The translations under genes were made by a program, and so were the position numbers. Below, piece by piece: positions 21,385-64,000 of a stretch of DNA of 64,000 nt. The notes below the pieces were generated by a model, which ran no database searches, was not told the origin of the DNA, and saw nothing but the letters and a program-made list of their open reading frames with translations. The stretch's first letter is position 1; each line of letters opens with the position of its first letter. Source of the DNA: Patescibacteria group bacterium (GTDB lineage Bacteria > Patescibacteriota > WWE3 > UBA101185 > UBA10185); the NCBI GenBank assembly GCA_049322215.1, contig JBMORU010000001.1:969759-1033758 (forward strand), written 5' to 3'.

Positions 21385-21965
21385 TTCTTTAGTAAAGATT
21401 CATCAAAATCTATAATAATAAAATACTTGGCAGAGCTATTTTGGCTATCTAAGTTTACTGTTGTTAAAGTAACATTTGTAAATAGTGCCGCTAAACCATC
21501 GCCTGCAGAAGGAAAGTTTTGGTCTGATAAAGTTTTTATAAACTGTGCTATAGAAATATAATCTGAACCTGTACCTGATATATTTATAATTGGGTCACCG
21601 CTGTCTAAACTTAGGTTTGCAATAACTACATTTGCAGGAACTCTTTTGGATAATTCCGAAAGCAAAATAGAAAAGTAATTGCGATCGGCATAAATACTTT
21701 GAACCGCAGAAAATTTAGCATCCAAATTTCGTGCAGAAATTTCTATTTGAGCTAAGTTCGTGATTTCCTTACGTAATTCCTGAATACGGGCTTCTGCACC
21801 ATCAGACTCTTGTTGAAGACTTCGAATTTGCCAGTAATAGTAGCCACTGATACCCAAAACCAGTAACAAAATAAGCAAAGAAACCACAGTACCTGCCTTC
21901 ACCGCTTTTTCTCTTACTTGTTCCTGTTTTTCTTCCTGAGGAATCAGGTTAATACTTTGAGCCAT
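21381..21965 (-). CDS. pilN: type IV pilus assembly protein PilN-like
   Basis: Single TM plus coiled coil; overlaps pilM and pilO by 1-4 nt. Confidence 0.55.
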   Translation of the reverse strand: MAQSINLIPQEEKQEQVREKAVKAGTVVSLLILLLVLGISGYYYWQIRSLQQESDGAEARIQELRKEITNLAQIEISARNLDAKFSAVQSIYADRNYFSILLSELSKRVPANVVIANLSLDSGDPIINISGTGSDYISIAQFIKTLSDQNFPSAGDGLAALFTNVTLTTVNLDSQNSSAKYFIIIDFDESLLKK

Positions 21966-32500: not shown

Positions 32501-32702
32501 AGGTAAAAGTAACTCGCTGCCAACGTTGATAACATGGTGGACTACTGCCAGGGGGGTTAAAGCCACAACCACCCGGTACATCCTGAACTTTTGTACCAAT
32601 GCAATAGTCTTGCGGATTACATATGGTTTGAGCATTAGCTTGAAATGTGAAAAACAAGCCACCAATAAAAACTAAACTAACTATAAATATTCTTTTCTTC
32701 AT
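29526..32702 (-). CDS. 1058-aa secreted Cys-rich protein with internal tandem roughly 130-aa repeats; candidate pilus-associated adhesin (giant 1)
   Basis: Sec signal MKKRIFIVSLVFIGGLFFTFQANAQ. Cys-rich N-terminus and a Gly7 run. Repeats WRRKYDPNSGTW...WSNCGDTSRVRVIV and FRRKYNASTGQW...WSNCGDEDFMRVTV. Many N-x-S/T sequons. Paralog of the gene at 33419. Confidence 0.5.
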   Translation of the reverse strand: MKKRIFIVSLVFIGGLFFTFQANAQTICNPQDYCIGTKVQDVPGGCGFNPPGSSPPCYQRWQRVTFTCEADCGYDVYYPAEGCDPNTCSEGAGSWHYTGTCCVNVSDDGDPGDPDDPPPEPAVCGDICGEGSASDGCSNVNVSWEDHSICDNAGLSCASWSDWGDGNCKKVCWGSVCGGGGGGGEDKRRVIGRVYHTDSSGNNILWQPATDNGAGFSCGGSYQTDPNGEHNGTLIISNSNGAASDWACNPGPHYIREAAADGAGPHSFTLFPPSGWECDTWSVTYPFGSYTNASGYGCVATVPLGGDDWDNHLWFKLKPENDPPTAQITNLTDPIYYPSRLLNVSATVSDQNDNLDEATMWRRKYDPNSGTWIGNWVQIGSTQSCSGGDCTITRSWDINSSDVGYWWVAVNAQDTEGFAGRPYSICTGNPGDNPLFPPVYPSSPYSAWSNCGDTSRVRVIVNDPPTGAVRLNGSFFSEGYYPSGGSTTLSVGVAQTFQGKGEDLNPNTGETLKLFRRKYNASTGQWSVPTSVCSPNCWTQFSGTHSCGTSVEPCYMTRSWTPVISDVGDWVVSVNVWDEFGDGAGENGRCSGNPGAYPENSPFYGPLNSPLYPTNVVPGWSNCGDEDFMRVTVNPVSDVQGWLWDSTEFVCEYPAKGVEELDPIAVDAINITTVPTGSSSVSLDGASNYPSYVVQDTPQQNGLSLCADLSEYAQQANATYSLRCVDGPGNSGPLSSTCALIDVPLDASGNPVDVHLGFDLDSKGWFSSLNGDIYAGCLTCAEGITESIPDASVVQGGFAPHLVSGNATTFSNKNIATNQDSSQYAQSNVYLKNINTLASTWLSAYSFIPPENAIQITDCTGFLTNRSLDPANVYEITSSCLQNGLNSLNAADYRIANGENGVVVIYVTGVTEVVFGDGDSIGTPRYFRSSEINNDRIFFVSQVPIRFSADLGASFAGEPSISTRPFVEAAFLTHGSIIFESTGDIETESTIIVEGPLIVGGDAASTVLFERDRGLKNSYPAEYIVYNPLYLTKLTSQELNSSIANYSGLFVSEVYWEK

Positions 32703-37393: not shown

Positions 37394-38596
37394 CTATAAA
37401 CTACTTGTGATTTGGTAAATAGGCGTAATAATCGAAACAATCAAAAGACCTACCATACCACCAAGCATTAAAAGAATTATTGGTTCCAATGCAGAAGACA
37501 ATCCTTGTACAGCATGATCAGTTTCTCCACCAAAAAAATCTGCAACCTTATCTAGTACTTCATCTAGTTGACCTGTTTCTTCACCAACTGCCGCCATTTG
37601 ACCAAGGAGGGGAGGAAAAATTTTATTAGCTCTAAGGTACTCTGACAAAGCATTACCTTTTTCTACACTGTTGGCAGCTTCTATGGCAGCTCTTTTAATG
37701 GCACTGTTTTTTGCAGCACGCGCTACTATGTGTAAAGCTTCAACAATAGGAATTGCAGAAGCAACTAACAAGGATAACGTACGCGTAAATTCTGATAATT
37801 CTTTTTGTTTGTTTATTTTACCAAACACAGGGAGTGTAAAGGACAGTTTAGATAATAATTCTTTACCGCCCTCAGTTGCAACAAAAGTTTTTATTGCAAA
37901 TATTAAACCGGCAACTGCGACCAAAACTATATAATAGCGTTGTACAAACAAATCAGACACAGTGATCATAAATTTTGTAATAGGAGGTAAGTCTACATTT
38001 AAGCTCTCATACATGTCAGCTAGCTTTGGTATAACAAAAACCATCATTAAAACAAAAACACCTATCATAACCACAAATACTATCGCCGGATACACCATGG
38101 CTGCTTTAAATTTAGACCTAAGCTCCCGCTGTTTTTCCATAGTGTCGGCTAAACGTAAAAGTACTTCGTCTAACTTACCCGATGCCTCACCTGCCATAAC
38201 TAAAGACTGATATGTTTGGGGGAAAACCTTAGGATATCTTCCTAAAGCCGTTGACAACGAAGAACCGCCCTCAATGTCTCGAAGAGAATCCATAATTATT
38301 TTTTTCATTTTAGGATTAGGTGATTGCTCAGATAAAACTTCTAAGGCTCGTGAAATAGGCAAACCTGCCGAAATCATAGTAGAAAGCTGACGTGTGAAAG
38401 CAACTATATCATTATCAGGAACTCCGCGAATACTAGTTAATTGATCTAATATTGAGGTTCTTTTTTCTGTTAATGTTACAACAAATAAACCCTGATCTTT
38501 TAACAAGCTGACTGCCAATGCTTCAGTTCTAGCGTCAACTGTACCAGTACGAGACTGCCCTTTATTGTCACGTGCAGTATAAGTATAAATAGGCAT
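37394..38596 (-). CDS. pilC: type IV pilus inner-membrane platform protein PilC (GspF family)
   Basis: Two GspF repeats and 3 TM segments; 400 aa. Confidence 0.8.
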   Translation of the reverse strand: MPIYTYTARDNKGQSRTGTVDARTEALAVSLLKDQGLFVVTLTEKRTSILDQLTSIRGVPDNDIVAFTRQLSTMISAGLPISRALEVLSEQSPNPKMKKIIMDSLRDIEGGSSLSTALGRYPKVFPQTYQSLVMAGEASGKLDEVLLRLADTMEKQRELRSKFKAAMVYPAIVFVVMIGVFVLMMVFVIPKLADMYESLNVDLPPITKFMITVSDLFVQRYYIVLVAVAGLIFAIKTFVATEGGKELLSKLSFTLPVFGKINKQKELSEFTRTLSLLVASAIPIVEALHIVARAAKNSAIKRAAIEAANSVEKGNALSEYLRANKIFPPLLGQMAAVGEETGQLDEVLDKVADFFGGETDHAVQGLSSALEPIILLMLGGMVGLLIVSIITPIYQITSSL

Positions 38597-39669
38597 TATT
38601 TATCCTTATCTTCCTTTAAAATTCTTCGCAGCTCATCAGGCTCGTTTGTAACTTTTAGAGCCTCACCTAAATCTATATGACCGTCGGTAACCAACTGGGC
38701 TAAATTCTTTTCAAGTGTTTGCATACCCATACTTCCACTTGTACGAATTACATTATTAAGTTGAAATGTTTTTCCTTCTCTAATTAAATTGCTTACAGCA
38801 TTAGTGGCAGTCATCAATTCAATTGCAGGAACCATTCCATAAGTTGGGGAGGGAACTAAGCGTTGTGAAATAACAGCCTCTAAGCTTTGAGACAATTGAA
38901 GCTGAATTTGTTTTTGTTGATTCTCAGGAAATGAGTCAATAATACGGTCAATACTTTGAGCAGCTGAATTTGTATGTAAAGTAGCAAATACCAAATGACC
39001 TGTTTCTGCAATTGTTACAGCAGCAGCTATTGTTTCATAGTCACGCATTTCTCCAATTAAAACTACGTTAGGATCTTGTCTTAAAACTGATTTCAACGCA
39101 ACACCCCAAGAATGGGTGTCTAAGTGCATTTCTCTTTGTTCTATCAACGATTGTTTGTTGGTAAAAACATACTCAATTGGATCTTCTATAGTAATTACGT
39201 GCTCTGCGCGTGTTTCATTAATTCGCTCTAACATTGCTGCTATTGTTGTAGATTTTCCATGCCCAGTTGGGCCTGTAACTAATACAAATCCCTGAGTTAG
39301 GGCACATAAGTCTCCTAAAACTGCAGGCAAGTTTAGTTCCTCCAAAGTAGGCACCTGTAAAGGCACCACGCGCATAGCAACTGATGCATAACCTTTTTGA
39401 AAAAACACGTTGACTCTAAAACGTACTTTATTGCCTAGTGAAACCGAAAAATCGACTTCTTTATTTACATCAAAAATATCTTTTTGCTCTTGGGTCATAA
39501 TTTGAGTCAAAACATACTCAATGTCGTCTACTACAAGTGGGGGATAATCGTCTAAACGTTTTAAAAATGTGTTTACTCTTACCATTGGAGAAATTCCCAC
39601 CGACAAATGTAAATCCGTCGCCTCAATTTCAACAATATGCTCAAGTAGTTTAGTGATATTAAATTTCAT
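38596..39669 (-). CDS. pilT: twitching-motility retraction ATPase PilT
   Basis: GPTGHGKSTT Walker A; 357 aa with no N-terminal GSPII_E_N domain. Confidence 0.8.
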   Translation of the reverse strand: MKFNITKLLEHIVEIEATDLHLSVGISPMVRVNTFLKRLDDYPPLVVDDIEYVLTQIMTQEQKDIFDVNKEVDFSVSLGNKVRFRVNVFFQKGYASVAMRVVPLQVPTLEELNLPAVLGDLCALTQGFVLVTGPTGHGKSTTIAAMLERINETRAEHVITIEDPIEYVFTNKQSLIEQREMHLDTHSWGVALKSVLRQDPNVVLIGEMRDYETIAAAVTIAETGHLVFATLHTNSAAQSIDRIIDSFPENQQKQIQLQLSQSLEAVISQRLVPSPTYGMVPAIELMTATNAVSNLIREGKTFQLNNVIRTSGSMGMQTLEKNLAQLVTDGHIDLGEALKVTNEPDELRRILKEDKDK

Positions 39670-39671
39670 AA

Positions 39672-41441
39672 TTACTCCTTTGCAACTCTCAAAACTTCTT
39701 CAATTGTGGTTGAACCCTCTAATACCTTCAAAAACCCATCTTGTACAAGTGTTATCATTCCTTCTGCTACAGCCATATCTTGTATTTTATCGGCAGTTGA
39801 ATTTTCTAAAGTTAACTCTGCAATTTTATTACTCATTTCTAGCACCTCAAATATACCCATTCGTCCTTTGTAGCCTGTTTTATTGCATTTGTCACAACCT
39901 TTACCACGATATAATTTTATTTTGTCTTCATGCAAAAGCTTTAATGTATCGGCAATACGCTTATCTTTACTCATTAATACTGTAGACTTTTCAATTTTGC
40001 TTAAATGCTCACGCATTTCTTTGGTTATTTCTTGCGGAGGTTCATAAGATTCTTTACAGTCAACACATATTTTTCTTACTAGTCGTTGTGCCACAATAAC
40101 ATTTACTGTAGATGCCAACAAAAAGTTTTCTACACCCATGTCCAACATACGAGGCAACGCACCAGAGGATGAGTTTGTATGTAAAGTTGAAAGTACCAAG
40201 TGCCCCGTTAGCGCAGCATGAATACCTAATTCTGCTGTTTCGCCGTCACGAATTTCTCCCACCATGATAATGTTAGGGTCTTGTCTTAAAAAAGCACGCA
40301 AGCCTGTTGCAAATGTTAACCCTGCCTGCGGATTAACTTGAACCTGATTAACTCCTGCTACTCTGATTTCTACGGGATCTTCTAAAGTAACAATATTTAC
40401 TCTTATGGTATTTAGCTTATTTAAGGCCGATGCCAAGGTTACGGTTTTACCCGAACCTGTAGGGCCCGTTACTAAAATCATGCCTGTAGGTTTTAATAAG
40501 CTTTCTTCAAAACGTTTTAACGATAAGCCTCGTAACCCCAAATCGTCAAAAGTAAAAATAAACCCTTCTTCTTTCAATAAACGTATAACTACTTTTTCGC
40601 CATAAATGGTGGGTAAAGTAGATACACGCAAGTCAGTTTGAGTATTACCCACCTGAACTTTAAAACGACCATCCAACGGAATACGCTTTTCATCAATTTT
40701 CATATTTCCTAAAATTTTTATACGTGCCACTATTGAATCGTGCATTTCTTTAGGGAAAGTACGCTTTTCTTCAAGTACGCCGTCTACACGATAACGTAAT
40801 CTTGTTTTGTCTTCACCAGGTTCTATATGAACATCAGACGCCGAAATTTTTACAGCCGTCTCTAAAATCATTCCAACAATACGTGCAATAGGAGCATCTC
40901 TAATTGTGGCCTCATCTGCTTCTAAGTCACCCTGATAATCCTCTAACTTAAGAGTGGTAGCCTGTATATCTTCTAAGGCAGCGCTAATTTCCTCGCCTAT
41001 AGCGCGCCCTTGCTGCTCATCGACTATACGAAGTATTTCTTTATCGGTAGCAATAAAAGGAATAACTTTATGCCCAGTACGACGTTCCAAAAATTCAATA
41101 GTCTGCAAGTCCAAAGGATCCACCATTGCTACTTTTAAGTTATTGTCTTGTAGTTCAAAAGGAAATACCTGATATTTTCGGGCAACTGTTGTAGGTATTA
41201 TCTCGGCATAGTTAGGATCGATTTTTATGTTTGATAAATCTACATATTCGATGCCATAAACCTCACCAAATGCTTTTACAAAATCCTCACTGCTAACGTA
41301 ACCACGCTCTTTAATTATTTCTTCTATGCTTTTGCCTGTATTAACGTTTTCAAATTTAATTGCAGAAAGCTGGTCATCATTAATGATGCCTTTTTCATGC
41401 AAAACGTCTTCTATTCCTTTTTGTGGATTCAAAAATGACAT
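39672..41441 (-). CDS. pilB: type IV pilus extension ATPase PilB/GspE (start revised to the ATG at 41441: MSFLNPQKGIEDV...)
   Basis: GPTGSGKTVTL, and a tetracysteine C-terminus CVDCKESY...CDKCNKTGYKGR. The listed start at 41513 is TTG. Confidence 0.8.
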   Translation of the reverse strand: MSFLNPQKGIEDVLHEKGIINDDQLSAIKFENVNTGKSIEEIIKERGYVSSEDFVKAFGEVYGIEYVDLSNIKIDPNYAEIIPTTVARKYQVFPFELQDNNLKVAMVDPLDLQTIEFLERRTGHKVIPFIATDKEILRIVDEQQGRAIGEEISAALEDIQATTLKLEDYQGDLEADEATIRDAPIARIVGMILETAVKISASDVHIEPGEDKTRLRYRVDGVLEEKRTFPKEMHDSIVARIKILGNMKIDEKRIPLDGRFKVQVGNTQTDLRVSTLPTIYGEKVVIRLLKEEGFIFTFDDLGLRGLSLKRFEESLLKPTGMILVTGPTGSGKTVTLASALNKLNTIRVNIVTLEDPVEIRVAGVNQVQVNPQAGLTFATGLRAFLRQDPNIIMVGEIRDGETAELGIHAALTGHLVLSTLHTNSSSGALPRMLDMGVENFLLASTVNVIVAQRLVRKICVDCKESYEPPQEITKEMREHLSKIEKSTVLMSKDKRIADTLKLLHEDKIKLYRGKGCDKCNKTGYKGRMGIFEVLEMSNKIAELTLENSTADKIQDMAVAEGMITLVQDGFLKVLEGSTTIEEVLRVAKE

Positions 41442-41483
41442 AGGCAGGTTTTTTCTACTCTTTACAAGAGTCTTCCTACAAAA

Positions 41484-41513
41484 ATGATAACAGTTTGGTC
41501 TGTGATTTTGCAA
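41484..41513 (-). promoter_or_regulatory. putative sigma-70-type promoter of the pilus super-operon (-35 TTGCAA, 18-nt spacer, TGtTATCAT extended -10), divergent from the holB-like gene
   Basis: Read on the minus strand in the 100-bp pilB/holB divergent region. Confidence 0.3.
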
Positions 41514-44296: not shown

Positions 44297-44860
44297 ATGA
44301 GTGAAGGAATACCTCCATACGCTAATGAAATACATTCACTAATAGAACAACTTTCGGAAGAAGCCAAAAGACAAGAAATTTTAGATTTAGAGCCAAAAGA
44401 AGGAAAAAACAAGGTCAAAGCTTTAGTTTTTTGCGATGCTGGAAAAAACAGAAGCTTGATGATAGCAGATCAACTAAAAAAACGAGGATACGAAGCCAAT
44501 AACTACGGAACAGGTAACTCAAATCCTTTTGAACCCTCCGCTATAGAAAATTCCGGTTTTCAAGTAATTGTTTTTGCAGATGAAACCGTAGAAGAAAACT
44601 TTTATAAAATACTGGAGGCTACAGGACATACCGAATCACCTTTATTAAAATTACCAACTAGAACATTAGACATTAAAGAAAGTAATGGAATAAGAGGGTA
44701 TAGAAACTCAACAAATCCATTCAACAAGCAAAAAGAGGTTGAAAAGGTAGTAGGGGAAACTAATCAAAAGCTTGAAAATTTAGGCTTTGTAAATAAAAAT
44801 GCCGAAAAAATAGAATCATTAGTAAATGAGATGGAACTGGAGGAAAGAGAATATGCCTAA
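44297..44860 (+). CDS. low-molecular-weight phosphotyrosine-phosphatase-like protein (divergent)
   Basis: LVFCDAGKNRS contains a CX5R(S) P-loop, as in VCLGNICRS; about 45-aa N-terminal extension. Confidence 0.35.
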   Translation: MSEGIPPYANEIHSLIEQLSEEAKRQEILDLEPKEGKNKVKALVFCDAGKNRSLMIADQLKKRGYEANNYGTGNSNPFEPSAIENSGFQVIVFADETVEENFYKILEATGHTESPLLKLPTRTLDIKESNGIRGYRNSTNPFNKQKEVEKVVGETNQKLENLGFVNKNAEKIESLVNEMELEEREYA

Positions 44861-45371
44861 AAAACTTCGCAAAAGGTTGTACGTAGAAAAAGGTTTTACT
44901 TTACTAGAGCTTTTAATTGTAATCACGGTTATAAGTATATTAGCCTCACTTTTAGTTGTTGTACTCAATGCAGGAGAATATCTTGGAGCATCAAGAGATT
45001 CGCACAGAGTTACAGACTTAAATAAAGTGCAGTTGGCTATTACAAATGCTTTAACTGACAATGCAATAGAATTAACCGACACAACAGGATGTACAACATG
45101 TAACAGCCTAACCGGAACCACGGCTATAGATGGTACAGGTTGGGTACAATTTAACAATACAAGTGGCAATGGCTTATCAGGATTGTTATTTGTACTACCA
45201 GTTGACCCTACAAATGAAGGAAATCATGTATACAGATATTATTCAAATGGAACAGATTTTGAAATAAACGTTAACTTTGAATCTGAAAAATTCACAAATG
45301 AAAACGCAGTTTCAGATGGAGGAAACAATGATTCGGTATATGAAAAAGGCTGGGATTTAACAATTAACTAA
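44853..45371 (+). CDS. orphan type IV pilin (start revised to the second ATG: MPKKLRKRLYVEKGFTLLELLIVITVISIL)
   Basis: RBS GGAGG. Homologous to the pilin at 36868 (TTGCTTCNS...GTTAIDGTGWV...VDPTNEG...GTDFEINVNFE...DGGNNDSVYEKGWDLTIN). Confidence 0.65.
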   Translation: MPKKLRKRLYVEKGFTLLELLIVITVISILASLLVVVLNAGEYLGASRDSHRVTDLNKVQLAITNALTDNAIELTDTTGCTTCNSLTGTTAIDGTGWVQFNNTSGNGLSGLLFVLPVDPTNEGNHVYRYYSNGTDFEINVNFESEKFTNENAVSDGGNNDSVYEKGWDLTIN

Positions 45372-45426: not shown

Positions 45427-46683
45427 TTACTGTCTTTTCTTTAAGGCAAAACCGCTAGTTATAGATGTTAAGCCTAGCAAGGTTAACACTACAGTTGAAG
45501 TAGCACCTGTTCTAGGTAATTCTTCTATACTTAGCACTTCACCATTTTCGTAACATACCGTTGCGGTATCTGAAGCTTCTTCATTATCATCATATTTAGC
45601 TACAGCTTCATTAACTACACACTTACTAAAGTCAGTTCTGTCGTATTCTTCAGAGTTAACTTTAACAGTAATGTAAAAGGTTCTTTCTTCACCAGGTTTA
45701 AAGTTATCCCAATCTTCGGTTAAGTCACCTGAAAGCTTAGCTAACTCATCTGGTAAAAAATCGTGCATACGCATATTATCGAATTCTACATCGTCAACAT
45801 CACCTGAATCAGTGTTGTTTTTAACTACGATTCTAAACTCAACTTCATCATCTTCAGTAACACCGGTTACTTTATCTTTCCATGATTTGTCACCTTTAAT
45901 GCGAACTTTCTTCTCTATATCAAAGGATTTATTAACGATACAGTCACCACCACCATAAGAACATACAGGTTCTTCGGGTTCCTCTGGCTGTTCACACTCA
46001 GAAGCATTGTATGAAACAGTATGCTTTTCAGTGTCACCAGAGTTTACCTTAACTCTAAGTTCTACTTCACCTGAATCAATAGAAGTCAAATTTGTATCTA
46101 ACTTCCATGTTTCGGAATCTCCAGAATTCAAAGTACGTGTGTCACCAGTAATACCTGTTTGTTTGTCTTTAGGTGTAATTTCTACAACATAATTTGAATC
46201 ACTGTTATCATTATTTTTAACTTGAACGTTAATTACTACACTTTCTTCTTCGCATGCAACCTCAGCAGAATAGGTTATAGAACCTTCAGGCTCTTCTTCA
46301 CCTTTACAGTTTATAGCTTCATAAGATACTTTTCTTTTATCAGTACCCTTGTTGCCATTTGTCCAAGTTAAGTAAAATTCAACTTCACCGGCAGATACAC
46401 TATTTAAGCCTGTATCAATTTCCCAAATAGCTTCTTCACCGGGATTTACAGTTTTAGTATCTCCTGACACGCCAGACTGCAAATCTGTAGGTGTAACATC
46501 CATAGCAGCTTGAGAGTTCTTTTCAGTATTTTTAAAAGTCGCTTTAATGACTACAGAATTATCTGTACAAACAGCTTCAGCTTCTTGAGATGTTTTCCAT
46601 GCGTTAGTGCTATAAACAGGCATAAAGGCAACTGTAACGGCAACTAAAAGCATTGTCTTTGAAATATTTCTTTTAATATTCAT
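45427..46683 (-). CDS. LPXTG (LPRTG) sortase-anchored surface protein (start revised to the ATG at 46683: MNIKRNISKTMLLVAVTVAFMPV...)
   Basis: C-terminus LPRTGATSTVVLTLLGLTSITSGFALKKRQ is a sorting signal. The C-terminal roughly 190 aa are paralogous to the gene at 46846. The CTATAGGGTATAAT promoter is at about 46753-46766 (minus strand). Confidence 0.65.
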   Translation of the reverse strand: MNIKRNISKTMLLVAVTVAFMPVYSTNAWKTSQEAEAVCTDNSVVIKATFKNTEKNSQAAMDVTPTDLQSGVSGDTKTVNPGEEAIWEIDTGLNSVSAGEVEFYLTWTNGNKGTDKRKVSYEAINCKGEEEPEGSITYSAEVACEEESVVINVQVKNNDNSDSNYVVEITPKDKQTGITGDTRTLNSGDSETWKLDTNLTSIDSGEVELRVKVNSGDTEKHTVSYNASECEQPEEPEEPVCSYGGGDCIVNKSFDIEKKVRIKGDKSWKDKVTGVTEDDEVEFRIVVKNNTDSGDVDDVEFDNMRMHDFLPDELAKLSGDLTEDWDNFKPGEERTFYITVKVNSEEYDRTDFSKCVVNEAVAKYDDNEEASDTATVCYENGEVLSIEELPRTGATSTVVLTLLGLTSITSGFALKKRQ

Positions 46684-46792
46684 GGGGCAAGCCTCCAAAT
46701 TAATAAATACAAGTACAAAATAAGGATCCGAAGATCCTAAATATTCATTTATTATACCCTATAGTCACTACAGTGTCAAACTAGGACAAAAA

Positions 46793-46845: not shown

Positions 46846-47970
46846 TTACTTTCTTCTTTTCAAGGCATAACCACTAGTTATAGAGGTTAATCCCAGTAAG
46901 GTTAGTACTAATGTTGAAGCCGCACCTGTTTCAGGTAGTTCCTCAATGCCTAGTACATCTTCGGTGTCAGAATAACAAACGGTAGCCGTGTCAGAACCTT
47001 CTTCGGTTCCGTCATAAATCACTGTAGCCTCATTAACTACACACTTGTCAAAGTCAGATCTATCGTACTCATCAGGATCAACTCTTACTCTGATGATGAA
47101 AGTTCTTTCTTCACCAGGTTTAAAAGCATCCCAATCTTCAGTTAAGTCACCAGAAAGCTTAATTAGCTCATCTGGCAATATATCGTGCATTCTCATGTTA
47201 TCGAATGCAACACCATCAACATCGTTAGCGTCAGTTTTGTTTTTTACAACAACCCTAAACTCTACGACATCATCAAATTCAACATCAGTTACTTTATCTT
47301 TCCATTTTTTGTCACCCTCTATACGAACCTTTTTCTCTATATCAAATGACTTGTTAATGATACAGTTTTCACCACCTCCGTAGCCTCCACCGTAACCACC
47401 GTAGATACTACATGGGGTTTCTTCTGGATCATCTTCAGGTTCTGGCTCAGGTTCGTTAGCAGGACAGCTTATTTCATGATGTTGCGCAATACTGTCAGCA
47501 GCATAAAGCTTTAACTCTCCAGCTTTGGGCAAGGTGAATGAAGATTCAACCACCATACCTTGAGGGGACTCGTAAACAACTTCTCCATTAAGGTAAAACT
47601 TGTTTACACGTTCATCAACATCGTCGTCAATAAACACATAGCTGAATTCACATCCAGCAGGTAACTCCCCGAAATTCACCCATTCATGGAAGATTTTTGT
47701 GTAGGCTTCGGAGCTAGTCCAAACTCGTTCCTTACGTGTAGAAGTGTAAGTATCACTATCTACAGTATCAAAACGAAACGGATTAGTTCTTTTAACTACA
47801 AATACTTCATTAGAATCCTTTGTATAACTTGCACTACCTTCGCCCAAATACTGAGTTTCTGGTAAAGCAAAAGCCTCATTAAGAGGCATTATCCCAAGGG
47901 CTAAGATTGTCATAGCAACAACCTTAAGTGATTTATCAGAGAGCCTTGAAATGAATTTTATTAAGTTCAT
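46846..47970 (-). CDS. LPXTG (LPETG) sortase-anchored surface protein
   Basis: LPETGAASTLVLTLLGLTSITSGYALKRRK; GY/GG-rich segment; RBS AGGAAGGAG; a TATAAT next to CTATAGG lies upstream. Confidence 0.65.
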   Translation of the reverse strand: MNLIKFISRLSDKSLKVVAMTILALGIMPLNEAFALPETQYLGEGSASYTKDSNEVFVVKRTNPFRFDTVDSDTYTSTRKERVWTSSEAYTKIFHEWVNFGELPAGCEFSYVFIDDDVDERVNKFYLNGEVVYESPQGMVVESSFTLPKAGELKLYAADSIAQHHEISCPANEPEPEPEDDPEETPCSIYGGYGGGYGGGENCIINKSFDIEKKVRIEGDKKWKDKVTDVEFDDVVEFRVVVKNKTDANDVDGVAFDNMRMHDILPDELIKLSGDLTEDWDAFKPGEERTFIIRVRVDPDEYDRSDFDKCVVNEATVIYDGTEEGSDTATVCYSDTEDVLGIEELPETGAASTLVLTLLGLTSITSGYALKRRK

Positions 47971-55372: not shown

Positions 55373-56359
55373 TTAAATTAAACTATTAATTTCGTCAGCA
55401 GTATCATCAACATCTTTATGAAACTTTGTGTGAATGTCTTTTAGCTGTTTATTTGTAACATGCGTATATATTTGGGTAGTAGACACATTAGAATGACCTA
55501 ATAGCTCTTGTACAGAACGTAAATCAGCACCCTCAGACAAAAGTCCGGTAGCAAATGTATGACGCAAAGTGTGTGGAGTAGCATCAATAGACAATCCGGC
55601 TCTAGTAACGTATTTTTTTATCATACGTTGCACACTTCTAGGCGTTAATCTTAAAGATTCGCCATCTTCATCACCAACTTCCATACGCTTGCCAGAATAA
55701 CGTAAGAATAAAGGTACGAAATTATCTCTACGCGTAGATAAGTAACGCTTTAACCAATCTTTAGCGCTAGGACTTAAATAAACTGTACGAACTTTTCGAC
55801 CTTTACCTACAACGGTAAATTCTCCTGAATTTAAATTTATGTCAGATACATCTAAATTTACTAATTCGCTTACACGTAACCCAGTGCTAAATAGGGTTTC
55901 AAGCATAGCTCTATCACGAATACCTGATTTCTTACTTAAATTTTGTGTTGAAAACAAGCCCTGCAATTGTTCTTCATTTAAAACTTTAGGAACACGTGCC
56001 TCTGGTTTACCTAAAATTATTTGTTCGGGGGATACTGTGTCTAAACCTAACTCCACCACAATGTATTTCAAAAAGGCACGAATTGCGACAAGAAATGTTT
56101 TTTGTGTAGATTTCTTGAATTCTTCATGCGATTTATTACTTATACGTCGGTTTAAATTTAAACGATACTTTCTAAGTAGTTCTTGATCAATATCGGATAC
56201 GTAAAAATCATCCTTCTTTAAATATGCCTTAGACCACTCAATAAAGTCATTTAAATAAAAATCGTACATACGAATTGTATTTTGAGAAAGGTTTTTTTCA
56301 ATTTCACAATGTTCTAAATAACGCGTAAGTAATTCTTTTAGAGATTTGGTCATAAACAT
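55373..56359 (-). CDS. tyrosine site-specific recombinase (XerC/XerD family)
   Basis: ...HTLRHTFATGLL...LLGHSNVSTTQIYTHV (R, H-x-x-R, and Y nucleophile). Confidence 0.8.
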   Translation of the reverse strand: MFMTKSLKELLTRYLEHCEIEKNLSQNTIRMYDFYLNDFIEWSKAYLKKDDFYVSDIDQELLRKYRLNLNRRISNKSHEEFKKSTQKTFLVAIRAFLKYIVVELGLDTVSPEQIILGKPEARVPKVLNEEQLQGLFSTQNLSKKSGIRDRAMLETLFSTGLRVSELVNLDVSDINLNSGEFTVVGKGRKVRTVYLSPSAKDWLKRYLSTRRDNFVPLFLRYSGKRMEVGDEDGESLRLTPRSVQRMIKKYVTRAGLSIDATPHTLRHTFATGLLSEGADLRSVQELLGHSNVSTTQIYTHVTNKQLKDIHTKFHKDVDDTADEINSLI

Positions 56360-56767
56360 ATGTTAACAAGAGTTAGAAAATTTTCAAACATAGAACATAG
56401 ATTATGCAAGTTTAAGATTTTGTAGACCTAGCATTAAAATTTACTCATTACATGTGATGCATAAGTCAACTAAAAAATAAAAATTGCTTACAGGGCATTC
56501 TAGAGCCTCACACCCATTATTTACTGTCACAACAACAAATAGTAAGAATCAGCATGTTTAAAACTGCTAAAAATGTAATGAAATAAAAAAAGACAAGTGA
56601 GGTATATACGCAAGAAATGAAAATGCGGCATTAAACGTTGAATAGAGTAGCTGCGCCGCAAACTAAAAATAAATTAACATACAATTAAACAAAAATTTGT
56701 TTGGTATTAAAAAGTAAATTAATTTGGATCAAATTATAGGGAACAGGTTAGAATATTAAAAAATACA

Positions 56768-56797
56768 AGACGTCGTATAATGTATGTTTAACGACGC
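56768..56797. other. candidate dif-like Xer recombination site: 11-bp arm ACGTCGTATAA, 6-bp spacer TGTATG, 11-bp arm TTTAACGACGC
   Basis: Imperfect palindrome (8 of 11 arm positions match). The core CGTATAATGTATGTT matches the E. coli dif core CGCATAATGTATATT (from memory) at 13 of 15 positions. It lies about 410 bp upstream of the xer gene. Confidence 0.4.
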
Positions 56798-57010
56798 CGA
56801 GGATTTATATGTATTGCAAGCACATAGATTCAACTGAATAGGGAGGCTTAATGGGATCACTCTATTAAAGCAGTTAATTTAGAAGAATTAATTATGTATT
56901 AATAAGTATTATTTATAGCTATTTATTTATTAATTCAGTTTTTATTTACGGCTTAGTAAAATTAATTCTTACTTGAGTACAAATTAAGTTATGCACAATT
57001 AACTTGAAAA

Positions 57011-57092
57011 GTATGACAACCCTCCCCTAGCCAAAGTATGACAACATAAACTATGACATTCTTACTTAAATTGCTTAACTAACTATGACAAC
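57011..57092. repeat. four direct repeats of TATGACA(A/T)(C/T): three copies TATGACAAC and one TATGACATT, at irregular spacing; iteron/operator-like
   Basis: Copies at 57011, 57036, 57051 and 57084, in the 840-bp AT-rich non-coding region. Confidence 0.4.
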
Positions 57093-57110
57093 ATTACAAC
57101 AAGCATTAGT

Positions 57111-57125
57111 GTAATAATACTATAG
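57111..57125 (-). promoter_or_regulatory. CCTATAGTATTAT promoter-like element on the minus strand (12 of 13 identical to the CCTATAGTATAAT motif), pointing into the non-coding region toward xer
   Basis: Reverse complement of TAATAATACTATAGG. Confidence 0.35.
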
Positions 57126-57197
57126 GTATTAGCAAATATAACTATGGGGTGTTAACAGCACTAGCACTTCCCTGCCTTCAGTTTTAGTCCTGTTTGT

Positions 57198-59143: not shown

Positions 59144-59827
59144 ATGAAATCAAATGCACATGCACTAGGAAAAAAAGCCATAAAAGCAGCCTTAAATAAA
59201 GATTGGAAAGCTGCTGTTGAACTTAATCTGGAAGTGTTGGAGGAAGCACCAAAAGACATACCCGCAAAAATCAGATTAGGAAGAGCCTATTTAGAGCTTA
59301 AAGAGTTTGCAAAGGCAAAAAAACTGTTTAAAGAGGTCTTAGAATCAGATCCTATAAATTCTGTAGCAAAGAAAAATTATGAATTAGCAAAAAGTAAAAC
59401 TGTAGTAAAAGACGCGATCATAGATAAAAAAAGCTTAATCAGAGAACCAGGTACTACAGATGTAGTTTGGATGGAAATAATAGCGCCAAGAATTACAGCT
59501 AATAACTTTAAACCAAAAGAAATGCTCAACTTTAGAATTAACAAAAATACAGTAACAATATTAAAGGAACATTCTAAAAGTGGTGAAACAGACATTCATG
59601 TAGGTAATATAGAAAAAGATTATGCAGCTAGATTAAAAAAGGCCAAAGACAAAGAAGCTGAAATAACAATTCAATTCATTGAGGGCAATGACAAACAAAT
59701 TAAGCTTGAATTGACTTCAACTGAACCAGTTTTTAGGGCAGAAAAGCAAGAAGTCAGACCTTACTTTAAACAAGATAATACAATCATAGAGGAAAGCCCC
59801 TTCGCTGACATAGACGATGAAGAATGA
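59144..59827 (+). CDS. TPR-repeat-containing hypothetical protein
   Basis: N-terminal TPR-like helices (KAIKAALNKDWKAAVELNLEVLE...LGRAYLELKEFAKAKKLFKEVLESDP). Confidence 0.5.
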   Translation: MKSNAHALGKKAIKAALNKDWKAAVELNLEVLEEAPKDIPAKIRLGRAYLELKEFAKAKKLFKEVLESDPINSVAKKNYELAKSKTVVKDAIIDKKSLIREPGTTDVVWMEIIAPRITANNFKPKEMLNFRINKNTVTILKEHSKSGETDIHVGNIEKDYAARLKKAKDKEAEITIQFIEGNDKQIKLELTSTEPVFRAEKQEVRPYFKQDNTIIEESPFADIDDEE

Positions 59828-59830
59828 GAA

Positions 59831-59860
59831 AGGCCGCATTATTAAATGCGGCCTTTTTTT
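59831..59860 (+). terminator. intrinsic terminator (AGGCCGCAT tattaa ATGCGGCCT + T7)
   Basis: Perfect 9-bp GC-rich stem plus T-run after the TPR gene. Confidence 0.8.
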
Positions 59861-59890: not shown

Positions 59891-60724
59891 TTAACGCAGA
59901 TCCTCATCATTAATTACACTAGGATCAAATTCCTTCAGCTCTGGCTCTATCTGAGTGGATGAGGTAGGTTGGGTTTTGGGCGTTAAAGGTTCTGTAGGCA
60001 TTTCCAAAGCTTCTACAGGCGGTACTGGTGGTACTGGTGGCTTTACAACATCAACCGAAGGTGGTGGAGGTGCAACCGGCTGAGGGGCTGGTGTAGAAGG
60101 CTCAAGAGGAATATCCCCTGCAGGCGCAATCACTTCCTGTGGCTGCGGAGGCACAGGAGTAGAGTTAGGTGTGGGAGATTCAGCTAAACTAGGTGCATCC
60201 GTAGCTGTTTTAGAAGGTGCTACCGACTTTTCATCTTTCACAACGCTATCAAGAGTGGCAAAAGGTGCTTTTAAATTATTTGCAGGAACTTCAACACGAA
60301 CTTTATTGTTTACCTCTAAATCGTTAAAGCTTGCAGCAGCCTCAGAAATAACATATGAACCGGCATCTGTTAACACATGCCACTGACCATCTTTTTTAGA
60401 AACTACGCCTTCTAAAATCTTTCTGTCGATTTTTTCCACTTGCTTAAATAATTTCTTCCCACCGTCTTCAATCATTTTTAAGGTATCGCCATAGGCCAGC
60501 ATTGATTTCGCAGCATAATTGGGGTTAACCTCATACTTCTGACCGTCTTCAGTAATCATATTGAACCCATCAAACACTCCCATAACACCGGGTACTTCTC
60601 TGTAGGACACTTTTGTGGCCTCATCAACCGTTTTTAAAAGCGCCTTAACTTTAGCTAAACTTTTTTCTATAGCATCAATTTGAGATTTTATAGAATTTAT
60701 GTCTTTTGATATATCGGCAGACAT
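59891..60724 (-). CDS. hypothetical protein with a Pro-rich C-terminal half
   Basis: PVPPQPQ...PAPQPVAPPPPSVDVVKPPVPPVPPV. Last gene of the minus-strand unit with the VirD4-like ATPase. Confidence 0.45.
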   Translation of the reverse strand: MSADISKDINSIKSQIDAIEKSLAKVKALLKTVDEATKVSYREVPGVMGVFDGFNMITEDGQKYEVNPNYAAKSMLAYGDTLKMIEDGGKKLFKQVEKIDRKILEGVVSKKDGQWHVLTDAGSYVISEAAASFNDLEVNNKVRVEVPANNLKAPFATLDSVVKDEKSVAPSKTATDAPSLAESPTPNSTPVPPQPQEVIAPAGDIPLEPSTPAPQPVAPPPPSVDVVKPPVPPVPPVEALEMPTEPLTPKTQPTSSTQIEPELKEFDPSVINDEDLR

Positions 60725-60770: not shown

Positions 60771-63332
60771 TCATTTGGAATGCCCAGTACTTTTCTCTGT
60801 TTCCATGGCTTTTCGTGCTTTATGCTCTTGGGAGATAGCTAAACCTTTATCGAACTGTCTATCTACCCAACGACGTATTCTTTCCTCTACAATGCGTCTA
60901 TCTGTACCGTAGTTTTGTCTACTTAGTTGAAGAGCACGTTCTCTGTTGGTAGCAGATCTAGGTACAAACGGTGGAACAGACTTTGCAGAAAAAGGCAAAG
61001 AAGTTGTTCCATTAATTACCATCTTAATATACATATTATACTTATCCAATGAAATTATATCGTTTGGAGTAAATTGAGGTGCAAACTCATTTGCAAGCAA
61101 TCGGGCATCACTCGCACCTAACCCAAAGGCAGCAATTGTTCCAACATTACCTAACACAGCACTCAATAAATAATCAGGAAGCTGAGATGTATATTGATGC
61201 GTTAGGTACAAACCTAGCTTATATTTACGTGACTCTGACAAAATAGACTCAAAACTACCTGTAGCAAAGTTTTGAAACTCGTCTACATATAAGTAAAATT
61301 CTCTTCTTTGTTCTGGGGCTAATTTTGCTCTTTGCAAGGCCATAAATTGAATTCTAGATACTAATAAGGCACCTAACAAATTGGCATTATCTTCACCTAC
61401 TTTACCTTTTGATAAATTTAGCAAAAGTATTTTTCCTGTATTCATGGCGTCCCAAATGTTAATTGTGGATTTTGGTTGACCCAATATATTTCGAATGGTT
61501 GTGGAAGCTAGAAATCTGTTTATTTTATTTTGTATGGGGGCAACCGCTTCTGTAGCTAATTTAGCATTCCCTCGCATAGCTGCGTACTCCTTTTCCCAAA
61601 ACTCCAAAACAACTGGGTCTTTTATATAGTGAAGAATATATTTTTGATAGTTCATGTCTCCAAGTAGGCGTGTAATAGAAAGCATGGTTGTGCCTGGGAC
61701 CTCAAGCAAAGTCAAAATAGCATAGTTTAACAAGTATTCTAACCTGGGTCCCCAGGAATATTCAAAGTGCACTTTAATTGCCGAAACAAGAGCAGATGCC
61801 ATTAAGTTTTTTTGTGACTGATCCTCTATTTCAAGTAAGTTAATTCCCACAGGATACGCAGTGTCAGAAGGATCAACTATTATTACATCTTTTAATCTGT
61901 GATCAGGAATATATTCCAAAACGTGGTCTATTAATTCGCCGTGTGGATCTAATACACCAACACCAAAACCATTATATATATCTTGCGTAATCATTGTTTC
62001 AAACAATGTCGACTTACCTACACCGGTTTTACCAATTAAATACATATGCCTTAAACGATCTCCCGTTGTATTATCTATACCAAAGGCAATACTCTGGCCT
62101 CTGTATGTAGTACGCCCAATATAGCAACAGTTTTCCGTTGGTAGATGTGAAGGGGGCTCCCCTTTTTTAGAATAAATCCATGACATATTAGGAGTTTCTA
62201 CATTAGATGTAGGCAAATGAAATATAGAAGCCATTTCAGTAATGTTTAATACATAACTGTTTTCCGTACTAAAAGTACGCGCCTTATATTTTTCAAAAGC
62301 CAATGAATTACTTACCTCATGATTAGTAATAAAGCTATTTAAGTTAGATGTGGAAAACTGGCGCATCGAGGCAGAAAAAGACCTTACTAGGTTTTTTGAA
62401 CGCTCCTGAGAATTAGAAGAAGCCAAAATTCTTATACTTACCTCAAAACCCATTTTCTCTAGCTTTGTTTCTATTGCTTCTACCATAACTTCTTCGGAAC
62501 CGGTTAGCTCTGGTTTCTCTGGAGCACTAGGGCCGGAAGACTGCTTACTACCTAAACCACTATCAGCAGAACTTCCAGCCAAAGCATCCGCAATTCCTCC
62601 AACTACGGCATATGTTAATGTTAAAAGTAAATCCAAAACAAAATCTAAAACATTGAAACCTTTTCTTTTTGATACAGCTTTTCCTGTAAGTAATTCTTTC
62701 ACATAATCGTAACCTTCTTCTTGCCAAACATCTGCAATTGGCCGTACAAGTAATTGTAACCACACAGTTTCCCCTTCTTCGGCCTCAGATAAAGCAGAAG
62801 TTAATGCAGCTAATGGGTCTACTTCAAAATCTCTAAATGTCTTTATAGGAAATATTTGGTTTTTTAATAAATTCATGTGAGCAACTTCAAATTTTTTATC
62901 TATAGGCTCAATGGCGTAGTCATCTACACGTTCGATGTGCGCTTCAGGGTATTGTGCATAAATTTGGCTTTCTACAAATTTATAAATGTGTCTAGGAACA
63001 ACAGCAAAAAATCTAATACCTTTAGCGTCTGAAGTTATTTCAAAAGTAAAGTGTTCTTGAACACCTGCATCTTCTCGCAACAATCCGTGCAAAGAAGCAA
63101 ACATCTGTTCTGCGGCAATAGGGGCTGTTTTGGTTACACCAATTTCAGGCATATCGCTCCAGGGAACCTGTATTTGAAGAAACACAGGATCATCAATTTT
63201 TTCTTCAACTATAGGTGTATCTTTTCTTTTTTTGGCTAAAACTAAAACTACGACAATTACTGCCACTAATGGGATAACAAGTAAAAAAGGTAAAATGGGC
63301 TGTAAAGAATTAAATATCTGATTAAAATTCAT
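60771..63332 (-). CDS. VirD4/TraG/TraD-like (type IV coupling protein-like) P-loop ATPase with an N-terminal TM and about 400-aa unknown domain (start revised to the ATG at 63332)
   Basis: Walker A LIGKTGVGKST. Walker B / TraG-D_C-like FYLYVDEFQNF. Perfect SD AAGGAGGTG 9 nt upstream. The listed start at 63344 is GTG. Confidence 0.6.
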   Translation of the reverse strand: MNFNQIFNSLQPILPFLLVIPLVAVIVVVLVLAKKRKDTPIVEEKIDDPVFLQIQVPWSDMPEIGVTKTAPIAAEQMFASLHGLLREDAGVQEHFTFEITSDAKGIRFFAVVPRHIYKFVESQIYAQYPEAHIERVDDYAIEPIDKKFEVAHMNLLKNQIFPIKTFRDFEVDPLAALTSALSEAEEGETVWLQLLVRPIADVWQEEGYDYVKELLTGKAVSKRKGFNVLDFVLDLLLTLTYAVVGGIADALAGSSADSGLGSKQSSGPSAPEKPELTGSEEVMVEAIETKLEKMGFEVSIRILASSNSQERSKNLVRSFSASMRQFSTSNLNSFITNHEVSNSLAFEKYKARTFSTENSYVLNITEMASIFHLPTSNVETPNMSWIYSKKGEPPSHLPTENCCYIGRTTYRGQSIAFGIDNTTGDRLRHMYLIGKTGVGKSTLFETMITQDIYNGFGVGVLDPHGELIDHVLEYIPDHRLKDVIIVDPSDTAYPVGINLLEIEDQSQKNLMASALVSAIKVHFEYSWGPRLEYLLNYAILTLLEVPGTTMLSITRLLGDMNYQKYILHYIKDPVVLEFWEKEYAAMRGNAKLATEAVAPIQNKINRFLASTTIRNILGQPKSTINIWDAMNTGKILLLNLSKGKVGEDNANLLGALLVSRIQFMALQRAKLAPEQRREFYLYVDEFQNFATGSFESILSESRKYKLGLYLTHQYTSQLPDYLLSAVLGNVGTIAAFGLGASDARLLANEFAPQFTPNDIISLDKYNMYIKMVINGTTSLPFSAKSVPPFVPRSATNRERALQLSRQNYGTDRRIVEERIRRWVDRQFDKGLAISQEHKARKAMETEKSTGHSK

Positions 63333-63380
63333 TTGTTTGTACACCTCCTTAGCATAAAAATAGCTTTATAAACACATCAA

Positions 63381-63405
63381 CCCCGCCCAAAATTTGGGGC
63401 GGGGT
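63381..63405 (-). terminator. GC hairpin CCCCGCCC aaaatttg GGGCGGGG; a putative terminator/attenuator between the 63437 gene and the VirD4-like gene
   Basis: Perfect 8-bp G/C stem in AT-rich DNA, followed on the minus strand by a moderately U-rich tract. Confidence 0.45.
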
Positions 63406-63436
63406 GAAGAAAGGAGAGAGACTTGGCATTATATTC

Positions 63437-64000
63437 TCACAAAGCGTTTGCTATGTCAAGCCCTAGAATGACAGTAATATCCGATCGTTCTATTTCATTT
63501 TCTGTCAGTGTTTTCAAAGAGTCCTTTGGAAGAATATTAGAAATGTTAAAAAATTTTGCTATATACTTAACTGAGGGAGAATCTGGATTTTTTGCGATAA
63601 TTAAACTTTCAGAATAAACTTTACCAGCATTGCTCGTAGCTATAACATGCAAGCCTGCATTATTTAAAACTCTAGAGCCATGAGATGCTAAACCTGGCTG
63701 TGTTGTTCCATTTAAAACTGTAGTACTTTCACCATCATGTGTAATTTTGGAATTAAAGGTTATATCCCCAATTAACGTATCTACTTTTGCAAAATCACTT
63801 ATTAAAGCAGTATCAATGTTTACGGGATTAGCATGCATGAGAGTAGAGTTTGAAATAAACTTATGAATATAGTGAAGTTCAGATAAAGTGAAGTTTGTTT
63901 CAATGGAACTTTGTAACTTACTTACAAAATCCATATTGACCAAACTAAGCAAAGACCCTTCCGGTGACGCAGCCTCTAAATAAGTAGAGGCACTCTTATC
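63437..64000 (-). CDS. hypothetical protein, 5' partial (the frame stays open to the window edge)
   Basis: No stop codon upstream in frame through nt 64000. Confidence 0.4.
   Translation of the reverse strand, partial: DKSASTYLEAASPEGSLLSLVNMDFVSKLQSSIETNFTLSELHYIHKFISNSTLMHANPVNIDTALISDFAKVDTLIGDITFNSKITHDGESTTVLNGTTQPGLASHGSRVLNNAGLHVIATSNAGKVYSESLIIAKNPDSPSVKYIAKFFNISNILPKDSLKTLTENEIERSDITVILGLDIANAL

Follow-up and report, generated by a model that had tools for sequence, protein, structure and literature searches.

What does a stand-alone ATPase that resembles the coupling proteins of type IV secretion systems (T4SS) do on a chromosome where no other conjugation genes lie nearby? The question is raised by a minus-strand gene near one end of a 64,000-nucleotide stretch of a Patescibacteria genome; this whole stretch is referred to here as the window. 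A preliminary description took the 853-aa product for a VirD4/TraG-like coupling ATPase with a large novel N-terminal domain, placed it in a three-gene unit between a 5' partial hypothetical gene and a gene for a protein with a poly-Pro C-terminal half, and judged it not to be part of a conjugative element. We followed up these claims by structure prediction, profile and homology searches, comparison of gene neighbourhoods and a survey of published data on relatives. It is well supported that the ATPase, anchored in the membrane and facing the cytoplasm, falls within the VirB4/VirD4/HerA/FtsK translocase superfamily, and that it belongs to a core family found throughout the Patescibacteria. 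The best explanation overall, to which we would give about even chances, is that this core gene, whose product joins a DUF8128 domain to an ATPase, encodes a translocase that couples nucleic acid or another substrate to an envelope machine whose own genes lie elsewhere.

The ATPase frame was listed among the open reading frames (ORFs) as 60771..63344 on the minus strand, opening at a GTG codon. We rejected this GTG as the start because it sits within the Shine-Dalgarno (SD) sequence, whereas the ATG at 63332 agrees with a protein from a Patescibacteria metagenome-assembled genome at NCBI (P0001). The 853-aa protein so defined is identical to P0001 over its whole length, and P0001, whose gene is on a 1.11-Mb contig, is named 'type IV secretory system conjugative DNA transfer family protein' at NCBI. 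GGAGG and the ATG are 11 nt apart. Hydropathy analysis (Kyte-Doolittle, 19-residue windows) gave one strong hydrophobic segment with a peak of 3.3, and the AlphaFold2 model places the corresponding transmembrane (TM) helix at residues 14-35. From the positive-inside rule, the topology is predicted to be N-out/C-in with the remainder of the protein in the cytoplasm. Alignment of 70 homologues showed that G434, K435, G437, G439 and K440 of Walker A and D684-F689 of Walker B are invariant; the extended Walker B reads FYLYVDEFQNF (residues 679-689). The N-terminal TM helix, both Walker motifs and the SD sequence of the preliminary description are all present in the sequence.

The AlphaFold2 model of the full ATPase (mean predicted local distance difference test score 82.7) consists of the TM helix, an alpha/beta domain at residues ~45-400, a RecA-like domain with an all-alpha insertion, and a helical tail. 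When this model was compared with the PDB using Foldseek, the best match was TrwK/VirB4, collinear over the full length (E 2.6e-11, ~900 aligned columns), followed by TrwB and then by DotL, Cagbeta and HerA. The model contains a VirB4-type N-terminal-domain fold, together with a TrwB-like nucleotide-binding domain that has Walker A/B and the all-alpha domain. The N-terminal ~400 aa had been described as novel; they are in fact already covered by PF26449 (DUF8128), a Pfam family with thousands of members. This domain is absent from our local Pfam scan, and the assignment comes from the collection's precomputed hits of P0001, which comprise PF26449, PF10412 and PF01935. Since DUF8128 adopts the VirB4 N-terminal fold in the model, the predicted ATPase is a hybrid and not a VirD4 protein with an orphan domain: it combines a VirB4-type N-terminal domain (~350 aa), a coupling-protein-type RecA-like motor and its own membrane anchor. 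We defined a DUF8128-ATPase family by the presence of both domains in one polypeptide of ~800-1000 aa. All 120 listed homologues show the same architecture, DUF8128 followed by a DUF87/TrwB-like ATPase, and the window protein belongs to this family.

DUF87/HerA-central is the best Pfam domain match (2e-9), and both TrwB_AAD_bind and DUF87 exceed their cut-offs, but the ATPase falls below those of T4SS-DNA_transf (18.0 bits vs 20.1) and TraG-D_C (17.3 vs 22). NCBIfam models of type IV coupling proteins (T4CPs) scored 25-29 bits against cut-offs of 366-648 (SXT_TraD, 28.7 vs 366; conj_TOL_TraD, 25.3 vs 647), and relatives behaved alike. The VirB4 families TIGR00929 VirB4_CagE and Pfam CagE_TrbE_VirB did not match the window ATPase, and a Saccharibacteria relative scored 17.8 bits against a VirB4 cut-off of 643. 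The NCBIfam T4CP, VirB4 and HerA models all stay far below their cut-offs and align with the ATPase at the P-loop region alone. Sequence searches of the PDB, with the single sequence or with a 70-sequence profile, yielded only marginal P-loop matches to TrwB. The view of the protein as a VirD4/TraG-like coupling ATPase holds for its T4CP-like motor and the TrwB_AAD_bind match, but not at the level of membership in the T4CP families.

Assignment to the HerA/FtsK clade, which the preliminary description had considered as an alternative, was not borne out. The score for the HerA equivalog NF040819 was 11.9 bits against a cut-off of 970, and the ATPase has neither the FtsK_SpoIIIE motor (no Pfam FtsK_SpoIIIE match), nor the gamma winged-helix domain, nor the 4TM N-terminus of FtsK/SpoIIIE proteins; DUF87 is nonetheless its top Pfam match. 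This top match, weak HerA matches and a PADLOC match to mad8 (7.7e-12) would allow the protein to be the HerA-type ATPase of an anti-phage defence system. We consider such a role very unlikely. The matches span the generic ATPase core only, the membrane anchor and the VirB4-like N-terminal domain are foreign to HerA, no effector (Sir2, nuclease, DUF4297) or other MADS gene lies nearby, and the core-gene distribution and conserved housekeeping synteny described below are unlike those of defence islands. A HerA/MADS defence ATPase was rejected on these grounds, the mad8 match being confined to the ATPase core and without system context.

The two halves of the protein can also occur separately. 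DUF8128 and the ATPase are adjacent in-frame ORFs in two Saccharibacteria genomes (L081:7851-10805 and L082:7839-10904), where stop codons interrupt the frame precisely at the domain boundary marked by the conserved EPPxxLP. As many DUF8128 representatives in a profile search are ~430 aa long and end at the C-terminus of the domain, their lengths suggest that the split form is common. A separate observation concerns residues ~226-253 within the VirB4-like domain (62574-62657), a second, moderately hydrophobic helix (Kyte-Doolittle ~1.7-1.8) which lies in the one long part of the model that is low in confidence and poorly conserved. This helix may dip into the membrane.

We then asked whether the gene could supply the coupling protein for an integrated conjugative element that extends beyond the window and has its remaining genes there, as its NCBI name and a tyrosine recombinase gene 4.4 kb away might indicate. 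A further 10 kb past the window edge was read from an identical Logan contig. This region encodes EamA, histidyl-tRNA synthetase, a metallo-beta-lactamase-fold protein, DnaB, EF-P, Lgt, a DksA/TraR zinc finger protein, LspA, two response regulators, RluD and the LytR_C-domain protein whose gene precedes the ATPase gene. The other flank holds the partner gene, a convergent tetratricopeptide repeat (TPR) protein gene, and genes for YebC, RuvC, a membrane protein, an Xer-like recombinase, IMPDH, RNase HII, a DHH phosphoesterase and GyrA; the remainder of the window is likewise housekeeping. No relaxase, VirB4 or other T4SS or mating-pair formation (MPF) gene was found among the screened window ORFs or in these additional 10 kb, and the 82 mapped related loci contain no relaxase or MPF genes. 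The same gene order surrounds a 57%-identical WWE3 homologue, and the housekeeping flanks are syntenic between genomes in which identity of the ATPases is no higher than 56-57%. GC content is even across the window, which has no tRNA. The recombinase itself is syntenic in WWE3 and Dojkabacteria and lies beside a dif-like site, and the ATPase gene occurs in at least 600 species. Membership of a conjugative element was therefore rejected on synteny, composition and the missing MPF and relaxase genes, and we regard it as exceedingly unlikely. The ATPase gene is a vertically inherited chromosomal core gene, and the preliminary description was right that conjugation and T4SS genes are absent nearby; its checks of neighbourhood conservation and of the region beyond the edge gave, respectively, a housekeeping gene order kept in WWE3 relatives and further housekeeping genes.

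A family scan using one genome per species returned ATPase relatives in at least 600 Patescibacteria species/loci, from which 80 loci with full-length relatives (37-57% identity) were kept. Except for L062 (Bulleidia sp.) and L076 (Chlamydiae bacterium), all 80 are labelled Patescibacteria, the labelled groups being WWE3, Dojkabacteria, Saccharibacteria, Nomurabacteria, Peregrinibacteria, Peribacteria and Gracilibacteria. The closest homologues are from candidate division WWE3 (53-63% identity). A DUF8128 profile search gave 3955 clusters at 50% identity. Within this family, which is already catalogued and has thousands of members, the window gene is an ordinary one.

Two clades, here called P1 and P2, were apparent from a neighbour-joining tree and gene maps of 82 loci. 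The window protein falls in P2; it is 36% identical to P1 members and 42% identical to a P2 from a Berkelbacteria-like locus. Loci of this type have the gene order P1, a 164-aa protein, a protein with Sigma70_r4 and HARE-HTH domains, and P2. In three of them (L012, L013 and L015), homologues of the 277-aa partner, which is encoded downstream of the window ATPase, are found between P1 and P2, and the 164-aa protein resembles the N-terminal 166 residues of the partner (36% identity, E 7e-23). A search with a P1 query, which bears on whether P1 occurs in WWE3, returned close relatives only; those few that carry a name are Berkelbacteria. L006 (1097 aa) and P0092 (1041 aa, with a Pro-rich linker) have the partner domain as a fusion at the C-terminus of the ATPase, and in P0089 and P0118 an S1 domain takes its place there (S1, 3.7e-20). 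The Sigma70_r4/HARE-HTH gene is directly upstream of P2 in 50 of the 75 loci with enough flank. In Saccharibacteria the order is DprA, TopA, sigma/HARE and P2, followed by the divergent genes FtsQ, FtsW, MraY, FtsI and FtsL. This recurrence of S1, helix-turn-helix (HTH) and partner modules suggests that the substrate is nucleic acid or that the modules serve as substrate adaptors.

The Sigma70_r4/HARE-HTH protein (L023:6866-7927, for example) is ~350 aa long and is annotated 'RpoS'. In one assembly (L025) it and the P2 ATPase form a single 1312-aa ORF, an apparent fusion.

Published data on relatives provide a view of the function. VirD4-like T4CP homologues number 5,713 in 2,918 of 3,035 Patescibacteria genomes, only 148 of them being near virB4, and VirB4 was found in 2,417 genomes; the authors raised exaptation as a possibility (Quinonero-Coronel et al. 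2025, PMC12102498). These homologues would correspond to the DUF8128-ATPase family. In Southlakia epibionticum ML1, the gene order is TopA (0296), one further gene, SEML1_0294 (Sigma70_r4 + HARE-HTH, essential) and SEML1_0293, which encodes a 921-aa protein with PF10412 at residues 402-719 and carries two flags, 'core' and 'Patescibacteria enriched' (Wang et al. 2023, PMC10633639 Tables S1, S2). Transposon sequencing scored SEML1_0293 as non-essential at all three time points, with normalised reads dropping from 5817 to 1372, while SEML1_0142 (1019 aa, 'TraM recognition domain') and the 139-aa gene preceding it are essential (PMC10633639). The T4SS cluster of Southlakia is essential and has no recognisable coupling protein (PMC10633639). 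Because it shares the TopA - x - sigma/HARE - ATPase synteny, and given its length and Pfam coordinates, SEML1_0293 is likely the P2 orthologue; SEML1_0142 is presumably the P1 paralogue. If the syntenic gene of Southlakia is a guide, cells can grow on the host without P2, while its apparent paralogue is essential. The substrate of P2 may be conditional.

The mechanism that we rank first, and hold loosely, is that of an ATPase coupling substrates to, or energising, a T4SS. By analogy with TrwB, VirB4, HerA and FtsK, the protein would form a hexameric ring at the membrane, and ATP would drive a polymer, of which nucleic acid is the likeliest, into a channel of the envelope whose genes lie elsewhere. 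In the R388 system, the VirB4 N-terminal domain contacts the VirB3/VirB8 inner-membrane platform (structures 7o41 and 8rtd). Based on this contact, the DUF8128 N-terminal domain is likely a docking module for the MPF-FATA-like T4SS of Patescibacteria. The 277-aa partner could act as substrate adaptor, a role suggested by the fusions described above; in other lineages a fused partner copy or a fused S1 domain may fill it.

Several observations weigh against this mechanism. The ATPase gene is not co-localised with T4SS genes in the window, in the 10 kb beyond it or in the 82 loci. Sequence similarity to characterised T4CPs is limited to the P-loop region, and the adaptor role of the partner would derive from fusions alone. 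The sigma/HARE neighbour is missing in WWE3, the window's own lineage, as well as in Dojkabacteria; both have the LytR_C gene instead. SEML1_0293 was assigned as orthologue by its synteny, length and Pfam coordinates rather than by alignment. T4CP-like genes occur in ~500 more genomes than VirB4 (PMC12102498), and the T4SS of Southlakia is essential while the P2 orthologue is not (PMC10633639). The gap in genome counts and the mismatch in essentiality argue against an obligatory T4SS role, and it is because of these two points that we hold the T4SS-coupling mechanism loosely.

There is also a different reading of the two paralogues. P1 and P2, with the partner and the Sigma70_r4/HARE-HTH protein, could constitute a Patescibacteria-specific nucleic-acid translocation apparatus that is independent of any conjugation-type T4SS, serving either as a ComFA-like import motor for scavenged host DNA or to send DNA or RNA out into the host cell. 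The family would then be an evolutionary intermediate between VirB4 and the coupling proteins. We think this unlikely, though worth keeping in mind.

The preliminary description had further suggested cooperation with the type IV pilus (T4P) in DNA uptake. As a DNA-uptake motor, the ATPase would pull single-stranded DNA through ComEC after capture by the T4P, in the role that ComFA plays in other monoderms. Saccharibacteria are naturally competent via T4P and ComEC (PMC10633639, PMC12857230), comEC, dprA and SEML1_0293 are all non-essential in Southlakia, and the Southlakia tables list no ComFA, just a ComF-family phosphoribosyltransferase-like protein (PMC10633639). The DprA - TopA - sigma/HARE - ATPase order in Saccharibacteria, the S1/HTH fusions or neighbours that point to nucleic acid, and the complete T4P cluster in the window agree with this role. 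However, the T4P cluster lies ~19 kb from the ATPase gene and is unlinked to it in the loci of relatives, where pil/com genes are adjacent in 0 of 82 mapped loci, and nothing ties the ATPase to ComEC. Linkage of dprA and topA is widespread in bacteria irrespective of the DUF8128-ATPase gene, and so the proximity of DprA may be incidental. The VirB4-like N-terminal domain also favours a T4SS-type platform over ComEC. On balance we regard an uptake motor as an unlikely explanation, but one to be taken seriously.

Chromosome neighbourhoods raise one more possibility, namely an accessory chromosome or cell-division translocase, a second membrane-bound pump of the FtsK/SftA kind that clears or resolves septal DNA. 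YebC, RuvC and an Xer-like recombinase are neighbours in WWE3 and Dojkabacteria, a conserved dif-like palindrome lies 4 kb away (56769-56798), and in Saccharibacteria the gene is beside TopA and divergent from the dcw genes named above. In the structure-based annotation of Wang et al. (PMC10633639), SEML1_0293 and SEML1_0142 were matched to FtsK (2iut) and the 6j17 P-loop domain, and non-essentiality would suit a redundant role. We nevertheless find this unlikely, though still a rival to be weighed: Southlakia already has a canonical, essential FtsK (SEML1_0096; PMC10633639), which weakens any case for FtsK replacement, the ATPase lacks both the FtsK gamma domain and a Pfam FtsK_SpoIIIE match, and neighbourhoods vary by class with no division or repair gene consistently linked.

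The palindrome lies in an 838-nt ORF-free gap (56360-57197, 29% GC) between the Xer-like recombinase gene (55373-56359) and the gene for a 264-aa membrane protein. It is imperfect and 30 bp long, GGCGTCGTTAA-ACATACAT-TATACGACGTC, with a core, GTCGTTAAACATACATTATACGACGTC, that is identical in two other WWE3-type genomes (L005:13555-13583; L002 ~18255-18285), where the flanks diverge. On this pattern it is a candidate dif-like Xer site beside its recombinase. The gap also contains four copies of TGTCATA(G/C)TT within ~80 nt (57018-57099; minus-strand starts 57090, 57058, 57043 and 57018), which may be protein-binding repeats. Rfam scans of the window and of the gap gave no match.

Coordinates of the ATPase gene and its surroundings are collected in Table 1.

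Table 1. Features of the ATPase gene and its immediate neighbours (window coordinates).
Feature	Position	Strand	Basis
ATPase coding sequence, 853 aa, DUF8128 + T4CP-like, membrane-anchored, P2 clade	60771..63332	-	ORF; identity to P0001; AlphaFold2 model
Shine-Dalgarno sequence of ATPase gene, AAGGAGGTG	63342..63350	-	Read from sequence; strong
N-terminal TM helix, residues ~12-33, then KKRK	63234..63299	-	Kyte-Doolittle; AlphaFold2 model
DUF8128 domain, predicted VirB4 N-terminal-domain-like fold, residues ~45-400	62133..63200	-	AlphaFold2 model; holds low-confidence hydrophobic helix ~226-253
RecA-like translocase ATPase domain, residues ~401-790	60963..62132	-	AlphaFold2 model
All-alpha insertion in ATPase domain, residues ~505-632	61437-61820	-	AlphaFold2 model
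Walker A, GKTGVGKS, residues 434-441	62010..62033	-	Regex match
Walker B core, DEFQNF, residues 684-689	61266..61283	-	Motif search
GC-rich hairpin, 9 pairs (8 G-C), terminator-like	63380..63405	-	Terminator consensus scan; T-tail weak (TGATGTGTTT)
LytR_C-domain membrane protein, 3' part in window (359 aa in full)	63437..64000	-	Pfam LytR_C 2.3e-9; full gene in L001
Downstream partner, 277 aa, own SD, 46 nt after ATPase stop	59891..60724	-	ORF list; outside 60771-64000
Terminator-like hairpin closing ATPase-partner unit, 12-pair stem	59829..59856	-	Terminator scan

The GC hairpin reported upstream of the ATPase is indeed present. It starts 32 nt past the stop codon of the gene that precedes it, with 47 nt left between its end and the ATG of the ATPase, and the 108-nt spacer in which it lies folds at -30.1 kcal/mol (z = -2.3 vs shuffles). 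That upstream gene, the partial hypothetical gene of the preliminary description, is partial in the window and encodes a LytR_C-domain protein; it forms cluster C14 of our gene maps, shares 33% identity with a syntenic homologue in L002 and is conserved as upstream neighbour in WWE3 and Dojkabacteria only. As the hairpin begins 32 nt after this gene's stop, it probably belongs to the LytR_C gene rather than to the ATPase, as its intrinsic terminator, and would mark the 5' boundary of the ATPase transcription unit. The proposed three-gene unit is thus retained as a gene order, which is kept in WWE3 relatives, but not as a unit: because a terminator-like hairpin parts the LytR_C gene from the other two, the ATPase and its 277-aa partner probably form a co-transcribed two-gene unit.

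The partner is cytoplasmic and has a coiled-coil N-terminus, a conserved ~130-aa domain and a Pro-rich tail. Proline makes up 27% of the last 111 residues; the C-terminal part is thus rich in proline, but not the poly-Pro of the preliminary description. It matched no Pfam or NCBIfam family. A word-indexed homology search gave 5 relatives only, and a local hidden Markov model of the partner matched only in WWE3 and Berkelbacteria-like loci. A syntenic homologue in L002 shares 46% identity. A 227-aa TPR protein gene (59144-59827, plus strand) converges on the partner gene, a position kept in WWE3 relatives (39% identity; L002, L005).

Elsewhere in the window, the T4P cluster (20533-41513, minus strand) comprises PilB (39672-41513), PilT (38596-39669), PilC (37394-38596), PilM (21965-23002) and a run of ORFs of 160-290 aa. 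Two huge ORFs in this cluster are essentially without a Pfam match, one of 1058 aa (29526-32702) and one of 955 aa with a weak Big_7 match only (33419-36286), and may be pilus-associated adhesins. Two adjacent LPXTG-motif proteins with no other Pfam domain (45427-46698 and 46846-47970, minus strand) adjoin a pilin-like N_methyl protein (44826-45371). This pair fits a monoderm envelope with sortase-anchored surface proteins.

The wider interest of the family comes from the biology of the Patescibacteria, which rely on physical contact with a host. In the single species where this was tested the T4SS is essential, and its cluster has no coupling protein; nearly every Patescibacteria genome carries about two stand-alone T4CP-like genes. 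The DUF8128-ATPase family unites a VirB4-type docking domain with a coupling-protein-type motor, falls into two old paralogue clades, and is recurrently paired or fused with nucleic-acid-binding modules. Whether its members are the missing T4SS coupling ATPases or DNA-uptake motors can be tested in the genetically tractable Saccharibacteria. The papers that we consulted give no earlier account of a VirB4-like fold for DUF8128, of the P1/P2 split or of the partner and S1 fusions, and a search for 'DUF8128' found nothing. These three points may add to existing knowledge, and they concern the family and not the window.

Among known systems, the hexameric translocases HerA and FtsK share the P-loop superfamily with the ATPase, and DUF87, the HerA central domain, is its top match; unlike them, it has no NurA-like neighbour and no FtsK alpha or gamma domain. 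The T4CPs (TrwB of R388, VirD4, TraD/TraG, Cagbeta, DotL) are likewise membrane-anchored RecA-like motors with an all-alpha insertion. A DEF-type Walker B is common to both, TrwB_AAD_bind lies above its cut-off in the ATPase, and the adaptor or fusion domains on its C-terminal tail parallel the TraD-TraM pair. However, T4CPs have a short two-helix stem directly before the nucleotide-binding domain, whereas the ATPase has one TM helix and a VirB4-like domain of ~350 aa; it is under every cut-off of the T4CP-specific Pfam and NCBIfam models, and it is encoded by a chromosomal core gene without the relaxase and MPF neighbours that T4CP genes have on mobile elements. VirB4 proteins (TrwK of R388; TraC/TrbE/CagE) are similar in two-module architecture and in length (~800-850 aa). 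The ATPase differs from them in lacking sequence-level membership, in a motor nearer to that of the T4CPs, in its own TM anchor, and in a gene that has no VirB3, VirB6 or VirB8 alongside. The nearest counterparts appear to be the T4CP homologues already reported from Patescibacteria (PMC12102498), including SEML1_0293 and SEML1_0142, which are chromosomal, far from virB4 and present in about two copies per genome, and which we infer to be of the same family. SEML1_0293 agrees in its Pfam coordinates and has the TopA - sigma/HARE - ATPase synteny of 50 loci in our maps, whereas the window version of the gene, without sigma/HARE upstream, is set between a LytR_C gene and the gene for the 277-aa partner.

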